4,274 nucleotides of DNA from a virus. Its lineage: Duplodnaviria; Heunggongvirae; Uroviricota; Caudoviricetes. The notes under the pieces are model-generated. The model was not told the origin of the DNA, did not search any database, and saw nothing but the letters and a program-made list of their open reading frames with translations. This document shows, piece by piece, positions 1-4,274 of the stretch. The first letter of the stretch is position 1. Each line of letters begins with the position of its first letter. A program made the translations under genes and the position numbers. The stretch spans positions 1 to 4,274 of the IMG/VR virus record IMGVR_UViG_2737471869_000021; one strand, written 5' to 3'.

Positions 1-192
1 TCAGGAGCATTTCTGATTAACGCCACCGTTAAGAATCCACCCTTCAACAGCTTCACGAAGGTATGATTTGGGGTGGGTTCTGACTGGCTTCGGAAATCCG
101 TGTCGTTTGGTATAGTTCCAGATTGTCTGACGTGATGAAACACCGAGCTTGTTCATCACTTCTTTCTCAGGAATCAGGCTGGTATCGGTCAT
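1..192 (-). CDS. AlpA-family helix-turn-helix DNA-binding protein, putative prophage excisionase / regulator (63 aa)
   Basis: Complete ORF with ATG at 192..190 and TGA at 3..1. A GGAG Shine-Dalgarno sits 7 nt upstream (minus-strand 'ctGGAGaattaagATG'). The protein (MTDTSLIPEKEVMNKLGVSSRQTIWNYTKRHGFPKPV...EAVEGWIL) has the AlpA/Xis-like pattern of short HTH, 'FPKP' and a conserved W near the C-terminus. Its position at the distal end of the ea region matches the xis slot upstream of int in P22-like phages. Confidence 0.7.
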   Translation of the reverse strand: MTDTSLIPEKEVMNKLGVSSRQTIWNYTKRHGFPKPVRTHPKSYLREAVEGWILNGGVNQKCS

Positions 193-206
193 CTTAATTC
201 TCCAGG

Positions 207-230
207 CAAAAAGAAACCGCCATCAGGCGG
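207..230 (-). terminator. Putative intrinsic (rho-independent) terminator, minus strand
   Basis: Minus-strand RNA would form a GC-only stem CCGCC-UGAU-GGCGG (plus 217..230), extendable by A-U and G-U pairs, followed directly by UUUCUUUUUG (plus 216..207). It lies between the 55-aa ORF and the AlpA-like gene. The plus-strand orientation has no U-tract. Confidence 0.45.
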
Positions 231-390
231 CTTGGTGTTCTTTCAGTTCTTCAATTCGAATATTTGTTACGTCTGCATGCGCTATCTGCGCCCATATCAT
301 CCAGTGGTTATAGCAGTCGTTGATGTCCTCTGCTTCGATAACCCTGTCGAATGGCTCTCCATTCCATTCACCTGTGACTCGGAAGTGCAT
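223..390 (-). CDS. Hypothetical small protein (55 aa), below the ORF-track size cutoff
   Basis: Manual translation: ATG at 390..388, TGA at 225..223, giving MHFRVTGEWNGEPFDRVIEAEDINDCYNHWMIWAQIAHADVTNIRIEELKEHQAA. A GGAG Shine-Dalgarno sits 7 nt upstream ('tatGGAGatgataaATG'). The stop codon lies in the loop of the downstream terminator hairpin. The residue composition looks protein-like. I recognise no family. Confidence 0.4.
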   Translation of the reverse strand: MHFRVTGEWNGEPFDRVIEAEDINDCYNHWMIWAQIAHADVTNIRIEELKEHQAA

Positions 391-401
391 TTATCATCTC
401 C

Positions 402-428
402 ATAAAACAAAACTCGCCGTAGCGAGTT
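402..428 (-). terminator. Putative intrinsic terminator, minus strand, downstream of the DUF551 gene
   Basis: Perfect 7-bp stem AACTCGC / GCGAGTT with a 4-nt loop (plus 411..428). On the minus-strand transcript it is followed immediately by UUGUUUUAU (plus 410..402). The T-tract runs into the Shine-Dalgarno of the 55-aa ORF. Confidence 0.5.
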
Positions 429-490
429 CAGATAAAAGAAATCCCCGCGAGTGCGAGGATTGTTATTCACCTTTGACGGCAAGTTGCAGG

Positions 491-1084
491 TTAGCCACGG
501 TTAACCTCCTGAGGCGGTTCTGGTAGCGGCATCCAGTGGGTTACTCCATGCCATATACCAGTTGAGGTTTCAAACCTTGGCTCTCTGCCTTTCTGTGTCT
601 TGGCATATTCATTCCTTGTATATACGCATTGTCTAACTGCATATCCATTCCATCCAATAACTGTTTGTCTAATTTCTGGCATTCGCTCACTACAGCTTAT
701 CCAGCTATCCTTAATGCCACTATCTTGACTCTGAAGCATGGCGGCACGACAGGCGTTCCAGCCTCTCACCTCTGCAATAGCGGCAACAGCATCGACCGCG
801 TACATTTTAAGAGGGTTAGGCATTGGTTTTTCTTCAGGTACTACTGGAATGGGTGGGGCGGCGTAGACCTCAATAATTCCATTATCAATAGGCCATTCTC
901 CATCCTTGAGGTAGTCACTTGTGCCGTCAACTTGCTGTTCTGCAATGTGGAATGCACCTATTGGTTTTGCCTCAAGCGATGCCAGTGCAATTCGTGCCAG
1001 TTCCATTTGTTCGCCACGGGTAAGCCCGTTTTCAAGCGGGGATTTAATGAACAATTCGATACGTTCTTTAGTGATAGTGCTCAT
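491..1084 (-). CDS. DUF551-domain phage protein (197 aa from ATG 1084; the track's longer 224-aa form from 1165 is less likely)
   Basis: The C-terminus carries the DUF551 hallmark (...WISCSERMPE...GIWHGVTHWMPLPEPPQEVNRG). The preferred start MSTITKERIELFIK has a strong Shine-Dalgarno (minus 'AAAGGAGagtgatATG'). That start lies 1 nt after the upstream gene's TGA (1088..1086), so the two genes are coupled. The 1165 start would overlap the Ea22-like gene by about 80 nt out of frame. Confidence 0.7.
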   Translation of the reverse strand: MSTITKERIELFIKSPLENGLTRGEQMELARIALASLEAKPIGAFHIAEQQVDGTSDYLKDGEWPIDNGIIEVYAAPPIPVVPEEKPMPNPLKMYAVDAVAAIAEVRGWNACRAAMLQSQDSGIKDSWISCSERMPEIRQTVIGWNGYAVRQCVYTRNEYAKTQKGREPRFETSTGIWHGVTHWMPLPEPPQEVNRG

Positions 1085-1085
1085 A

Positions 1086-1784
1086 TCACTCTCCTTTGAT
1101 GCGAATGCCAGCGGCGCGTGGCACATTAACTTCCACGATGCGCACTGTTGGTTTGTACATCTCAATCGCTGTCAGCCAGTCAGCTCCTGCCATGCGCTTT
1201 TCCGCATCGCCATTAGTCCACTGAACCGGTACACCAATAGCCTTCATCGCGATTTCTATTTCCCCGGCAATGGCGCTTTTTCCGCAACCAGTAAAACCAG
1301 AAACAACGACAAGAACTTCGCCTTTGGCTGGTTTTATTTCCCGCGCTTCCAGTTTTGCTATGCGCTTCTCTGATGCTTCAAGTAACGCCTGCTTATCGCG
1401 TAGCGCTTCTTCCAGTTCAGCAACATGGCACTCACTATCAATAAGGTTGTTCTCTGCGGCTTCCAGCTCAACGCGCAACTTCCCTACCGTTAACGCAATC
1501 TCCTCGTTCTCCTGGTCGCGGCGTTTGATGTATTGCTGGTTTCTTTCCCGTTCATCCAGTAGCGCCTGCACTACTTCAGGGTTGAAAGCTGCGATATAAC
1601 GAGCGTTGTTCTCTGCGTTTTTCTGTCCATCAAAGCCGGTCCATTTGATAACGTCTTCACATCGTTTATCACCGGGCGTATGCACCGCATACGTACCAGT
1701 ACCAGACGAAATAAATGCGACCCATTCGCCCGGTGTTGCCTGTTTTGCTATCTCACGCAGTGCCTGATAATTAATTTCGCTCAC
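1086..1784 (-). CDS. ea22: Ead/Ea22-like family phage protein (232 aa), GTG start; central coiled coil and a C-terminal Walker-A-like motif
   Basis: An in-frame TAA lies immediately upstream of GTG 1784..1782, so this is the first possible start. It is preceded by a strong Shine-Dalgarno ('gcAAAGGAGGctgtaaGTG'). The N-terminus ([24 protein letters not shown]...AAFNPEVVQALLDE) matches my recollection of the Ead/Ea22-like N-terminal domain. The centre is a heptad-rich coiled coil (RERNQQYIKRRDQENEEIALTVGKLRVELEAAENNL...EEALRDKQALLEASEKRIAKLEA). The C-terminus contains VLVVVSGFTGCGKSAIAG. Confidence 0.7.
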   Translation of the reverse strand: MSEINYQALREIAKQATPGEWVAFISSGTGTYAVHTPGDKRCEDVIKWTGFDGQKNAENNARYIAAFNPEVVQALLDERERNQQYIKRRDQENEEIALTVGKLRVELEAAENNLIDSECHVAELEEALRDKQALLEASEKRIAKLEAREIKPAKGEVLVVVSGFTGCGKSAIAGEIEIAMKAIGVPVQWTNGDAEKRMAGADWLTAIEMYKPTVRIVEVNVPRAAGIRIKGE

Positions 1785-2266
1785 TTACAGCCTCCTTTGC
1801 GAAGCTCTGCAGCGAAATATACAGCTGCGGAAACAATAGCTGCATGTCGGCATTCACCATCAGAAAATAAAGAATCTCCCTTAAGTGCATTGACGATACT
1901 CTGATGATTTTTTGCCAGCATCTCAACCCCCTGCGCCCGGACTTCAGCCAGGAAAGCATCGGTGGCTGGGGTGTCTGATTGCAGAGACTTTGCGCGATAG
2001 TCATTCCACCCTCTTGCATACATGGGATTAACTCGCACTCCATCTTTTACGCAATATGCCTGACCTCCACGGTTGATAACCTTGATTTCGTCCATAGCGC
2101 CAGACTTCAGCCCCGCATTCTCCGCCGCCAGCGCCGCGCACTTGGCCTCCGCTTCAGCAAATTTACGCACCAGATATTCAGCGTTTGTTTCGTTAACCTT
2201 TAAATCACTTGGGATGCATTTACCTTTCAGAAAACCATCCATCTCAATTAGTGACATTAGTTTCAT
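1781..2266 (-). CDS. Hypothetical phage protein (161 aa), ea-region gene of unknown function
   Basis: ORF with ATG at 2266..2264 and a moderate Shine-Dalgarno (GGAG/GGGAAG upstream). Its TGA (1783..1781) overlaps the GTG start of the Ea22-like gene as GTGA. The protein ([16 protein letters not shown]...[35 protein letters not shown]...[19 protein letters not shown]...) has no family I can name. Confidence 0.6.
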
Positions 2267-2385
2267 TTCTTCCCACTCCGCAACATCGCATTCAGATATT
2301 TGTTTTGATTCACTGATGGAAAAGAATTTCTCTTAAGCAATTCCTCTCTCGATGGCATTGGCTTTACGCGTTGGCGAATAATCAT
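2263..2385 (-). CDS. Possible small ORF (40 aa) in the abc2-to-161-aa intergenic gap; weak
   Basis: Manual translation: ATG 2385..2383 gives [40 protein letters not shown], ending at TGA 2265..2263. That TGA overlaps the ATG of the 161-aa gene as ATGA. There is no convincing Shine-Dalgarno and several rare Arg codons. The ATGA overlap is the only real support. Confidence 0.2.
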
Positions 2386-2437
2386 TTCTGCCGGAAGAAT
2401 GCCGGGATTGTATGCAAGTCATCTCATGGTAAATTCC

Positions 2438-2734
2438 TCAGTCATTACTGATAGCGCCATAGCGTGAGCGGTAATTACGCAGGCGCGGGTCGATATATTC
2501 AGGGAATTTGTCTATTGTCGCTTTTCGCAACGGTCTCATTGCTGTTTCGTTTGTTCGGTCCTTCTCCTGTTTTAGCGCGAGTTGTATATCGCGTCGGTAC
2601 ATCCGTTCTGCTTTTGTTTCTGGTGTCAGAGCAAGAAACGCGTCGAAATTGTTTTTGATATTTTCCAGCACCTCCGCCTTGGAGCTACCGGAGCAATTGC
2701 GCGGGTCATCCGCACCATACAGAGGCGCTGGCAT
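2438..2734 (-). CDS. abc2: Probable anti-RecBCD protein Abc2-like (98 aa)
   Basis: Clean ORF with ATG 2734..2732 and a good Shine-Dalgarno ('AAGGAttccattATG'). The size is close to the roughly 97 aa I recall for P22 Abc2, and it lies downstream of erf in transcription order. The N-terminus MPAPLYGADDPR... matches what I recall of Abc2-family proteins. This is an assignment from memory and synteny, not a search. Confidence 0.5.
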   Translation of the reverse strand: MPAPLYGADDPRNCSGSSKAEVLENIKNNFDAFLALTPETKAERMYRRDIQLALKQEKDRTNETAMRPLRKATIDKFPEYIDPRLRNYRSRYGAISND

Positions 2735-2757
2735 AATGGAATCCTTATTTTGCTAAT

Positions 2758-3141
2758 TTAGAAGGGAATTGAATCGTCGTATTCAGGATGATTTTGATGA
2801 TTGCTACTTTGTTGCTGTTGGCTGTTTCCTGAAGTTGCAAATCCAATCTTTGCATTCAGTAATTCAAGAGTGATTGATTGACCATTTTGCCCCTGATAAA
2901 CATCAACCCTGATGTTTTCTCCGGTAATTTCTACAATTCCACCTTCAACAAGAACACTACGGTAGTAATCCGCTTGCGCTCCCGGCTTGGCAAATACAAC
3001 GGCGCTGTAGTTTGTCCATTCTTTCTTTTTTGTCTGGCGATCGTAATACTGAACGCCAGCACGGATGTTGAATCCGATATTTTCCCCGGCCTGAAACTCT
3101 CTTGCGGGCTTGTTTAGTCTTACAGTAATCGAATGTGCCAT
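2758..3141 (-). CDS. ssb: Phage single-stranded-DNA-binding (SSB-like) protein, minimal OB-fold with C-terminal acidic tip DDSIPF (127 aa)
   Basis: The protein ends ...SGNSQQQQSSNHQNHPEYDDSIPF, a Gln-rich linker plus a D-D-x-I-P-F tip like the C-terminus of bacterial SSB (...DDDIPF). The core (KEWTNYSAVVFAKPGAQADYYRSVLVEGGIVEITGENIRVDVYQGQNGQSITLE) resembles the SSB OB-fold segment ([32 protein letters not shown]...). Its ATG (3141..3139) overlaps the erf TAA (3143..3141) as TAATG. Confidence 0.7.
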   Translation of the reverse strand: MAHSITVRLNKPAREFQAGENIGFNIRAGVQYYDRQTKKKEWTNYSAVVFAKPGAQADYYRSVLVEGGIVEITGENIRVDVYQGQNGQSITLELLNAKIGFATSGNSQQQQSSNHQNHPEYDDSIPF

Positions 3142-3746
3142 TAAGCAGCCGCTCCTTCTAATTCATCTCGTCTGATGTTGTAAACGTCCTGCGCTTTGTG
3201 CTGCTCCGGTGTGCCTTCGAGCATCTTCCACGCTTTGGCGAACGCCTGTTTAAGCTCTTCCACGTTGTTTTTCTGCATTGCTGCGTCAGTGAATGCTTTT
3301 AGAACCTGTTCAGGTGTAGGTGATGGTTTTGATTGCTTTGCTGCTGCGTTCTGCTGATGTTTATGCTCGTCTGTATCTGCATCTTTCGCATCATCAATGC
3401 CGAATAAACCATTGAGGCAATACTTGCGTGCATAAGAGCTTGTAGCTCCCGTAACTTGTGCAGAATCCATTCCTTTCTTGCTTTCTTCCTCTCGTGCAAG
3501 AGCGGTTGCCGTATGACTGTTTTCGCCATCGGTAATAGTTGCCGTGGCTTTCACGTAATACCGATCACCAATCAACACAACTTCATCGCTGATTGATAAA
3601 AACAGGCCATTCAGTAACGGTTTAACACCTTCAAGAATATCTTCGCAGCTTCTGTATTTATATTTACCGAATGAGTTGTAATGATTTTTTGGCGCGTTCA
3701 GATTCTCCTGAATAGCTGCCAGTCTTGCGTAAAATTCTTTGCTCAT
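3141..3746 (-). CDS. erf: Erf-family single-strand annealing recombinase (201 aa from ATG 3746)
   Basis: The N-terminus MSKEFYARLAAIQENLNAPKNHYNSFGKYKYRSCEDILEGVKPLLNGLFLSISDEVVLIGDRYYVKATATITDGENSH... closely matches P22 Erf as I recall it. The track's 211-aa form begins at a TTG (3776) that adds MGHVHSENKH; the ATG at 3746 is the likelier start. Confidence 0.85.
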   Translation of the reverse strand: MSKEFYARLAAIQENLNAPKNHYNSFGKYKYRSCEDILEGVKPLLNGLFLSISDEVVLIGDRYYVKATATITDGENSHTATALAREEESKKGMDSAQVTGATSSYARKYCLNGLFGIDDAKDADTDEHKHQQNAAAKQSKPSPTPEQVLKAFTDAAMQKNNVEELKQAFAKAWKMLEGTPEQHKAQDVYNIRRDELEGAAA

Positions 3747-3756
3747 ATGTTTGTTC

Positions 3757-3927
3757 TCAGAATGGACATGGCCCAAGTAAATAACGCTGATTTAATACTT
3801 CAGTCTTTGCCGCATTTAAAAATACGCGAACACCTTCACGATCTCCCTTCTGGCGATACATTAACGCCTGCTGCGTGTACATGCGTCTCTGTAACTTGCT
3901 CTCCTTCACTGTGGTTGCAAGTGACAT
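3757..3927 (-). CDS. Small protein (56 aa) immediately upstream of erf; positional candidate for an Arf-like accessory gene
   Basis: Manual translation: ATG 3927..3925 with a very strong Shine-Dalgarno ('cgaAGGAGatattcATG'). Protein MSLATTVKESKLQRRMYTQQALMYRQKGDREGVRVFLNAAKTEVLNQRYLLGPCPF, TGA at 3759..3757, 10 nt before the erf ATG. It is below the ORF-track cutoff. It overlaps ORF 3836..4006 out of frame by 92 nt. Confidence 0.45.
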   Translation of the reverse strand: MSLATTVKESKLQRRMYTQQALMYRQKGDREGVRVFLNAAKTEVLNQRYLLGPCPF

Positions 3928-4006
3928 GAATATCTCCTTCGTTACCGATTAAATCTTTCATCTGACGAATGAATTCTTCGTCTGACCAGTTATCTGTAAA
4001 ACTCAT
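3836..4006 (-). CDS. Alternative small ORF (56 aa) coupled to kil; conflicts with ORF 3757..3927
   Basis: ATG 4006..4004 overlaps the Kil-like TGA (4005..4003) as ATGA. Protein MSFTDNWSDEEFIRQMKDLIGNEGDIHVTCNHSEGEQVTETHVHAAGVNVSPEGRS. The N-terminal half looks protein-like; the C-terminal half is low-plausibility and lies in the overlap. The Shine-Dalgarno is weak. The track's 61-aa version starts at a GTG (4021) with no Shine-Dalgarno. Confidence 0.25.
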   Translation of the reverse strand: MSFTDNWSDEEFIRQMKDLIGNEGDIHVTCNHSEGEQVTETHVHAAGVNVSPEGRS

Positions 4007-4155
4007 TTCCTGCGATACCACGGAAGGTTGATAGCTGATTTCATCGCTTTATTTGCTTCAAACCACATTTTGGAATCACCAATAAATCTGGCTATTACTG
4101 CTTTGTTTTGTGCAGCACGAAGCATCTGATGATTTATGGCTATTTCATTGCGCAT
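4003..4155 (-). CDS. kil: Kil-like host cell-division inhibitory peptide (50 aa)
   Basis: Manual translation: ATG 4155..4153 with a GGAGG Shine-Dalgarno 4 nt upstream ('ctGGAGGcattATG'). Protein MRNEIAINHQMLRAAQNKAVIARFIGDSKMWFEANKAMKSAINLPWYRRK. It lies immediately downstream of cIII and overlaps its 3' end, matching the cIII-kil order in lambda and P22. The ...IA.FIGD..M..EA... core matches my recollection of lambda Kil, but this is unverified. Confidence 0.5.
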   Translation of the reverse strand: MRNEIAINHQMLRAAQNKAVIARFIGDSKMWFEANKAMKSAINLPWYRRK

Positions 4156-4274
4156 AATGCCTCCAGTTGTTTCTTTGCTGCTCTGATTAATTGTTTAACT
4201 CGGCGTGATAATTCAGATTCGTGCGGGTAGAAAGCGGACATGACGCCGCTACCCGCGAGCTGAAAGTGCATCAT
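4140..4274 (-). CDS. cIII: CIII-like regulatory protein (FtsH/HflB inhibitor), 44 aa; start codon at the window edge
   Basis: Manual translation from the ATG at 4274..4272 (a second ATG at 4271..4269): MMHFQLAGSGVMSAFYPHESELSRRVKQLIRAAKKQLEALCAMK, ending at TAG 4142..4140. It resembles lambda CIII (MQYAIAGWPVAGCPSESLLERITRKLRDGWKRL...), sharing the xAG segment and the P-x-ES-x-L...R..+.L amphipathic helix. The Shine-Dalgarno lies outside the window. Confidence 0.65.
   Translation of the reverse strand: MMHFQLAGSGVMSAFYPHESELSRRVKQLIRAAKKQLEALCAMK

Follow-up and report, generated by a model that had tools for sequence, protein, structure and literature searches.

We found that a 4,274-nucleotide stretch of a virus of the class Caudoviricetes (IMG/VR record IMGVR_UViG_2737471869_000021, positions 1 to 4,274; hereafter the window) carries adjacent genes for an Erf-type annealase, a protein of 127 amino acids (aa) resembling proteins that bind single-stranded DNA (SSBs), and a member of the Abc2 family. 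We consider it very likely (probability about 0.85) that these genes form a homologous-recombination (Rec) module of the HK97/HK022 type of lambdoid prophages, one that uses host RecBCD modified by Abc2. An earlier note, made from the letters of the DNA alone, had placed three recombination genes between positions 2438 and 3746, and all three open reading frames (ORFs) were recovered there on the minus strand (Table 1). ORF families were assigned throughout by Pfam and PHROG profile searches, which assigned none of the window ORFs to a nuclease family; the cassette contains neither an exonuclease nor Gam.

By analogy with P22, Abc2 would bind RecC such that the helicase and nuclease of RecBCD keep running while the outcome dependent on Chi and RecA loading is blocked. 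Because Abc2 would leave both activities running, RecBCD could supply the resected single-stranded DNA (ssDNA) that lambda gets from Exo. The phage SSB would coat this ssDNA, its C-terminal tip might help to recruit Erf, as the example of phage HK620 suggests, and Erf would anneal the ssDNA to a complementary strand. The expected outcome is recombination independent of RecA and Chi, by which the phage genome would be circularized and concatemerized.

The arrangement of the genes, as read from the DNA, argues for a Rec module: they are tightly packed, apparently translationally coupled, set in an operon context, and ordered as in HK97, HK446 and HK75. The erf stop codon and the start codon of the SSB-like gene share one base (TAATG), a junction geometry identical to that of erf and abc1 in P22, and abc2 is preceded by a Shine-Dalgarno sequence (AAGGA) 7 nucleotides (nt) upstream of its start. 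A promoter and terminator scan found no promoter-like sites and no convincing terminators in the erf-ssb-abc2 interior. The HK97 record annotates abc2, gp40 and erf, HK446 has Abc2, a protein 'similar to HK97 gp40' and Erf, and a comparable gene order is annotated in the HK75 record. Gene families and order in the window also fit the type 'anti-RecBCD + SSB + SAP, no nuclease', one of 13 functional types of Rec module and the type of 27 of 325 panel phages (Zheng et al., 2025, PMC12315714). The module is an already described, ordinary one of the HK97/HK022/HK446 type, with nothing new in its make-up.

The likeness to HK97, HK022, HK446 and Sf101 (the 'HK75 functional type' of Zheng et al.) extends to the gene order erf-gp40 (SSB-1b)-abc2, the overlaps, and the flanks, with kil and gp42-like small ORFs upstream and DUF2737 downstream, and protein identities to the window reach 99% for Erf and 94–100% for the SSB. 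These phages differ in that most carry a P22-type Abc2 (92–95% identical to that of P22, ~62% to that of the window), and HK75 differs further in the subtype of its Erf (PHROG 1097) and in its SSB, a canonical SSB-1. The arf-erf-abc1-abc2 genes of P22 are alike in their position after cIII-kil, in the absence of an exonuclease, and in Erf (74%) and Abc2 (61%), and the strategy of modifying RecBCD through RecC and supplying an annealase of its own is presumed by analogy to be shared. In contrast to P22, the window lacks Abc1, whose slot is occupied by the SSB-like gene, and the place of arf is taken by two small ORFs, orfA and orfB, with likeness limited to a DxWSDEEFI-type motif. The resemblance to the P22 strategy proposed in the earlier note thus holds for the homology of Erf and Abc2 but not for the gene set, in which Abc1 is missing and Arf is not recognizable, as in the HK97/HK022 arrangement. 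The lambda exo-bet-gam genes share the operon position and the purpose, RecA-independent phage recombination with RecBCD neutralized. However, lambda shuts RecBCD off entirely through Gam, a DNA mimic, and encodes its own 5'-3' exonuclease, whereas the window module has neither, in keeping with the contrast to lambda Gam/Exo/Bet already drawn in the note.

Erf and its SSB-like neighbor

The annealase proposed in the earlier note was recognized both by profile (PF04404, E = 3.9e-44) and by comparison with P22 Erf (74% identity overall, E = 2e-110). The relationship to the P22 protein is mosaic, with 91% identity over the N-terminal 130 residues, where ring formation and DNA binding reside in P22 Erf, and 45% over the C-terminal 71 residues. 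We favored the ATG at 3746 as the start codon over the TTG at 3776 of the ORF list, because the Erf proteins of P22, HK97 and HK446 all begin with MSKEFY at this point (MSKEFYARL in the window). Ring-shaped oligomers and ssDNA annealing are established for P22 Erf, and the window protein is, from sequence and modeling, a candidate Rad52-like, ring-forming single-strand annealing protein; a sequence search of the PDB returned no solved Erf structure. The window protein is 99–100% identical at 80 IMG/VR loci, and the erf gene differs at only 7 of 606 nt despite ~93% DNA identity of the region to relatives. We attribute the difference between the protein (99–100%) and the regional DNA (~93%) to mosaicism, since the divergence sits in abc2 and in the orfB region. 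Within the conserved NAPKNQYN motif of Erf, the Gln is replaced by His22 (window position 3681, codon 22).

One idea that we dropped was that the type of Erf C-terminal domain tracks the neighboring gene, an SSB with an IPF tip or Abc1, and hence that Erf contacts the SSB tip. At the IMG/VR loci, the window-type C-terminal domain always lay beside SSB-1b or canonical SSB-1 and the P22 type beside Abc1. In the phage collection, C-terminal domains 63–77% identical to that of P22 adjoin either Abc1 (ST64T, ST104, BTP1) or SSB-1 (Sf6, mEp235). The association that remains is explained by simple physical linkage.

The middle gene had been called SSB-like in the earlier note, a description now supported by a PHROG profile, a predicted OB fold and the C-terminal tip. 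The 127-aa protein matched PHROG 44 ('single strand DNA binding protein') over residues 2–127 (E = 1.8e-28) and is 94% identical to HK97 gp40, which has been named 'SSB-1b' from its predicted structure (Zheng et al., 2025, PMC12315714). An AlphaFold2 model built on a 43-sequence alignment (mean pLDDT 84.8; >90 for 92 residues) predicted a beta-barrel over residues 3–103 with one helix (55–63), followed by a disordered segment (107–121, pLDDT <50). In a Foldseek search of the PDB with this model, the best 50 matches (E ≤ 1e-3) were without exception OB folds of SSB or PriB, and the best match by sequence was also an SSB, at a non-significant E value of 0.042. The C-terminus comprises a Q/N/S-rich linker, SGNSQQQQSSNHQNHPE, and then YDDSIPF. 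The tip DDSIPF, identical in 40 of 120 homologues with most others ending in D/E-x-x-[I/P]-P-F, is the best conserved feature of the family after the barrel. It mirrors the tip of Escherichia coli SSB, DDDIPF. Sequence and model together suggest a diverged SSB of bacterial type, made up of an OB fold, then a disordered linker, then the DDSIPF tip.

HK97 gp40 (L001, 2851–3240) itself ends in YDDSNPILI, as opposed to the DDSIPF ending of the window protein and most homologues. The HK97 protein thus lacks a canonical SSB tip; it may be a variant, or the old record may contain a sequence error.

We also weighed whether the 127-aa protein might not be a working SSB, being instead a DDSIPF decoy that titrates host SSB partners (RecO, RecQ, ExoI, PriA) or an Abc1-like RecBCD accessory protein with an OB fold. 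The gene takes the exact place of abc1, sharing one base with erf as abc1 does, the protein has no Pfam SSB match and at most 18% identity to solved SSBs, and the prominence of the tip in its family would suit a decoy. We nevertheless consider this improbable, given that the top structural matches and the PHROG 44 profile point uniformly to SSB-type folds and that the architecture of OB fold, linker and tip is complete. The protein gave no alignment at all with P22 Abc1, which by profile is a helix-turn-helix (HTH)/sigma-region-4-like protein, and Abc1 had no matches in the 80 sister loci. Moreover, at two loci (L093 and L094) a canonical SSB-1 (C-terminus DFDDDIPF), either by itself or alongside a DnaQ-like nuclease, occupies the same slot after a near-identical Erf. 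This substitution argues that the 127-aa protein is functionally equivalent to a true SSB.

A role for the SSB beside an annealase has a precedent in HK620, where the cognate SSB stimulates the Sak4 annealase through its last six residues and their deletion reduces recombineering about tenfold (Hutinet et al., 2018, PMC5928155). The HK620 genes (hkaM-sak4-ssb-abc2) likewise combine an annealase, a cognate SSB with a hydrophobic and acidic tip, and Abc2, with a small orphan ORF ahead. They differ from those of the window in that the annealase is the RecA-like Sak4 and not the Rad52-like Erf, and the HK620 SSB ('SSB-2') lacks homology to bacterial SSB (Zheng et al., PMC12315714). According to the same study, the SSB-1 proteins of the lambdoid Rec modules of Sf6 and ES18 have not been studied experimentally, and we found no experiment on SSB-1b.

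Abc2 and the fate of RecBCD

The 98-aa product of the third gene matched PF11043 at 121.7 bits (gathering cut-off 25), with residues 1–98 aligned to positions 1–97 of the 97-position model, and PHROG 656 (abc2 anti-RecBCD) with E = 5e-45. It aligned over its full length with P22 Abc2 at 61% identity with one single-residue gap (E = 7e-43), so that the Abc2 assignment of the earlier note, which hinged on similarity of the 98-aa protein to this family, survived the comparison. Full-length matches were also obtained to PDB 8B1T_A (E = 3.7e-32) and to chain A of 8B1U, both from cryoEM structures of RecBCD-Abc2 (Wilkinson et al., 2022, PMC9836394).

In those studies P22 Abc2 sits on RecC and does not substantially alter the RecBCD helicase in vitro, and RecBCD exonuclease activity is retained in vivo (PMC9836394). 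The combination of RecC binding and loss of Chi-dependent, RecA-loading recombination with the nuclease still active has been described for P22 Abc2 only (PMC9836394). Abc2 also recruits host PpiB via Pro68, the residue inferred to enter the PpiB active site, and has been proposed to redirect recombinase loading from RecA to Erf (PMC9836394).

We mapped the eight RecC-contacting side chains listed in the source data of Figure 4 of that study (PMC9836394) onto the window protein. Six of the eight are identical or conservatively replaced (among them E39, K41 and R47, identical, and K44R and H48R, conservative), as is Pro68, which lies in a retained R-P-[FL]-R-K-A-T motif. The stretch that makes backbone contacts, C14-S15-G16, is also identical. 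Identity to P22 Abc2 is unevenly distributed, at 94% over residues 1–16, 40% over 17–66 and 81% over 67–98. Judged by its sequence, the window Abc2 is a second sequence type, diverged specifically in the helices that would face RecC.

This type was uncommon among 80 viral contigs with a near-identical Erf, 76 of which had P22-type Abc2; the other four had either the window type or a recombinant of both types. The window allele is nonetheless found, at 100% identity, in 51 phage records already deposited, among them those of JEP4, TL-2011a and many Stx2a-converting phages. Window-type Abc2 also occurs beside a P22-type Erf and Abc1 (L083–L085), which indicates that Abc2 alleles assort without regard to the other module genes. 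More generally, Abc2 comes in at least two sequence types, which agree at their ends and diverge in the center, and recombinants between types occur, for example at L040. A third, far more distant type (28–35% identical) follows canonical SSB-1 at L093–L097.

Chi sites were uninformative with regard to this mechanism. The earlier note had reported none by eye, and a computational scan likewise found no exact Chi octamer on either strand of the window. At the base composition of the window, chance alone would put only ~0.09 sites into 4274 bases, so their absence carries no information. Two one-mismatch sites were present, no more than expected by chance (shuffle mean 2.5). We rejected Chi avoidance as evidence, both for this reason (0 observed against 0.09 expected) and because phages of the same functional type do carry Chi, with at least four sites in 11 of 27 (Zheng et al., PMC12315714). 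That the cassette would confer Chi-independent recombination, as the note supposed, is an extrapolation from the experiments with P22 Abc2.

orfA, cassette exchange and a possible OLD connection

In delimiting the module to 2438–3746, the earlier note captured erf, the SSB-like gene and abc2, but orfA (3836–4006), which lies upstream of that interval, probably belongs to it as well. orfA takes the position of P22 arf between kil and erf, with its ATG overlapping the kil stop codon (ATGA), and its product is identical to HK75 Gp33 at 55 of 56 residues (98%). It contains a motif, DNWSDEEFI, at the same distance from the N-terminus as HEFSDEEFI in Arf. Similarity to P22 Arf was otherwise marginal (blastp E = 0.013; PHROG Arf E = 0.013; hhalign probability 32%), and the Pfam family Phage_Arf gave no match, while one nr source labels a protein 96% identical to the orfA product 'accessory recombination function protein'. 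We regard orfA as probably a fourth, accessory member of the module that acts on or near RecBCD.

Only the first 16 residues of the orfA product, MSFTDNWSDEEFIRQM, are constant, and many alternative C-termini occur in databases. orfA overlaps orfB by 92 nt in a different frame, with both frames open, and orfB has a GGAG 8 nt before its ATG and is 98% identical in HK75, HK446, HK022 and many other phages. HK97 gp42 corresponds to orfA fused in frame to the C-terminal part of orfB, and databases hold many orfA/orfB variants joined at differing points.

A July 2026 preprint (doi 10.64898/2026.07.10.737580) deals with an HK75 locus consisting of Gp33, Erf, Gp31 and Abc2 and reports that Gp33 alone made the abortive-infection nuclease OLD of P2 toxic to the same degree as the complete locus did. 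Its authors suggest that Gp33 is a new inhibitor or manipulator of RecBCD.

Two prophages occupying the same chromosomal site and otherwise near-identical (L166 and L168, ~3727–5830) illustrate how the module is exchanged. In these, window positions 2439–3956 are cleanly replaced by genes for a highly acidic 35-aa peptide that shares the 16-aa N-terminus MSFTDNWSDEEFIRQM, a 102-aa ORF, RecT, a MuGam-like protein and an Abc1-family protein (PHROG 323). The boundaries of the swap lie directly past the abc2 stop codon and inside the conserved start of orfA. The presence of a cassette with RecT and a MuGam-like protein in the same place indicates that annealase and anti-RecBCD functions swap as a unit.

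That sister prophages exchange Abc2 for a MuGam-like end-protection protein raises the question of whether Abc2 acts mainly in anti-defense, simply inhibiting RecBCD in the manner of lambda Gam or T7 gp5.9 and so shielding linear phage DNA, with Erf and the SSB working independently of RecBCD. Databases do label the family 'anti-RecBCD', and Zheng et al. group Abc2 with Gam under the anti-RecBCD function (PMC12315714). We find this quite unlikely, however, in view of the scarcely changed helicase and retained exonuclease reported with P22 Abc2 (PMC9836394), and because in a module without its own exonuclease something must resect DNA for Erf. The OLD results, too, speak against it, with Gp33 alone sufficing as a trigger in HK75, a phage that the authors describe as having no known RecBCD inhibitors (doi 10.64898/2026.07.10.737580).

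A more far-reaching proposal is that orfA (Gp33-like), Erf, SSB-1b and Abc2 form a four-part functional unit in which orfA is the counterpart of P22 Arf, acting directly on RecBCD and sensed by abortive-infection systems like P2 OLD. The divergent Abc2 allele and a mosaic Oad2-like gene downstream would then stem from an arms race around RecBCD surveillance and not from neutral mosaicism. We regard this as a tentative and rather doubtful extension of the Rec-module interpretation.

Several observations weigh against the interpretation of the cassette as a Rec module working with Abc2-modified RecBCD. We know of no experiment on this exact set of alleles, and to our knowledge an interaction with an SSB tip has never been demonstrated for Erf, whose C-terminal domain type, moreover, shows no clean match to the type of the neighboring gene. 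In residue-by-residue comparison, the Q22H change in Erf was absent from P22 Erf and from loci L003 and L165. For the 127-aa protein, no Pfam family was found even at E ≤ 10, and its Foldseek matches were of moderate quality (TM 0.37–0.57, rmsd 5–6 Å). In Abc2, the R13N and Y30F substitutions remove two of the side-chain contacts with RecC, and the segment with only 40% identity (17–66) comprises the helices that lie on RecC. Finally, the RecBCD-related trigger in HK75 is Gp33 and not Abc2 according to the preprint (doi 10.64898/2026.07.10.737580), which blurs the division of labor between orfA and Abc2.

Operon context, distribution and downstream genes

All sizeable, family-supported ORFs of the window lie on the minus strand (Table 1), and the window is a segment of a lambdoid early-left (pL) operon, cIII-kil-...-xis, with leftward transcription. 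The sole promoter-like match in the window (3973–4000) falls inside orfA and a weak terminator-like hairpin (3825–3840) inside orfB; better terminator-like hairpins occur far downstream of the module, at 410–461 and 214–233. In these two regions the coding strand has three such hairpins, each with a T-tract, past the DUF551 gene, around the 55-aa ORF and before xis, and the HK97 record annotates a putative terminator at a comparable place. An Rfam scan of the window found no RNA families.

Table 1. Genes of the window in the order of transcription, with the profile matches on which their assignment is based.
Feature	Position	Strand	Product and match
cIII	4140-4274	-	Pfam cIII E = 2e-30
kil	4003-4155	-	PF06301
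orfA	3836-4006	-	56 aa, acidic; PHROG 2123 E = 6e-40
orfB	3757-3927	-	56 aa; PHROG 1723 E = 1e-32
erf	3141-3746	-	201 aa from ATG; PF04404 E = 3.9e-44
SSB-like gene (HK97 gp40 type, SSB-1b)	2758-3141	-	127 aa; PHROG 44 E = 1.8e-28
abc2	2438-2734	-	98 aa; PF11043 E = 1.5e-35
DUF2737 gene	2263-2427	-	Pfam/PHROG; directly downstream of abc2
PHROG-614 gene	1781-2266	-	161 aa; Oad2 relative
Ead/Ea22 gene, then DUF551 gene, then 55-aa ORF	downstream of 161-aa gene	-	Pfam/PHROG
AlpA/Xis-like gene	1-192	-	Pfam/PHROG

Window positions 2400–3800 align end to end, at 92–94% DNA identity, with Sf101, HK544, HF4s, mEp213, mEp043, HK022, HK633, HK97, HK542, HK106 and many Stx phages. Of 5426 complete E. coli genomes, 559 (~10%) contained the module (2438–4006) at ≥80% coverage, and the draft assembly L165 (GCA_023641965.1) is 99.9% identical across window positions 1–4006.

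Against this 99.9%-identical relative, the DUF2737 gene next to abc2 carries at base 2421 a TGA at codon 3 in place of GGA (Gly), after which only 40 aa, starting at an internal ATG (2385), can still be read. The stop could be an inactivating mutation or a sequencing error. Together with the private Q22H change in Erf, it is what one might see if the cassette were a decaying, non-functional remnant in a defective prophage. We hold this to be very improbable: the module ORFs are all intact and full length relative to those of the functional phages HK97, HK446 and JEP4, the Erf and SSB proteins are 99–100% identical to those of many viral contigs, and near-identical loci carry integrase, xis, cIII, kil and the repressor region.

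The 161-aa ORF that follows is a mosaic relative of HK446 gp27 'Oad2' (40% identical), with conserved ends (the N-terminal 37 residues and a C-terminal LRKGG), and is 46% identical to HK75 gp28. According to the preprint (doi 10.64898/2026.07.10.737580), Oad2 is an OLD inhibiting protein and HK75 gp28 does not suffice for inhibition of OLD. The cassette thus travels with two genes of this kind, one 98% identical to a reported trigger of OLD and the other related to an OLD inhibitor.

As a discovery the cassette is minor, the module being annotated in HK97, HK022, HK446 and many other phages and having been classified in 2025. In practice it is of value as a correctly annotated case of what would be hijacking rather than blocking of RecBCD, and it could serve to test Erf together with a cognate SSB in recombineering. 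Three threads are mildly interesting, namely orfA with its likeness to Gp33, the diverged Abc2 allele and the neighbor related to Oad2; they fall in part outside the interval marked in the earlier note and rest on very recent experiments by others. At the chromosomal level, the near-identical prophages L165 and L167 (~8247–11031) adjoin host sbcB, the gene for exonuclease I, with their integrase gene lying beside sbcB.

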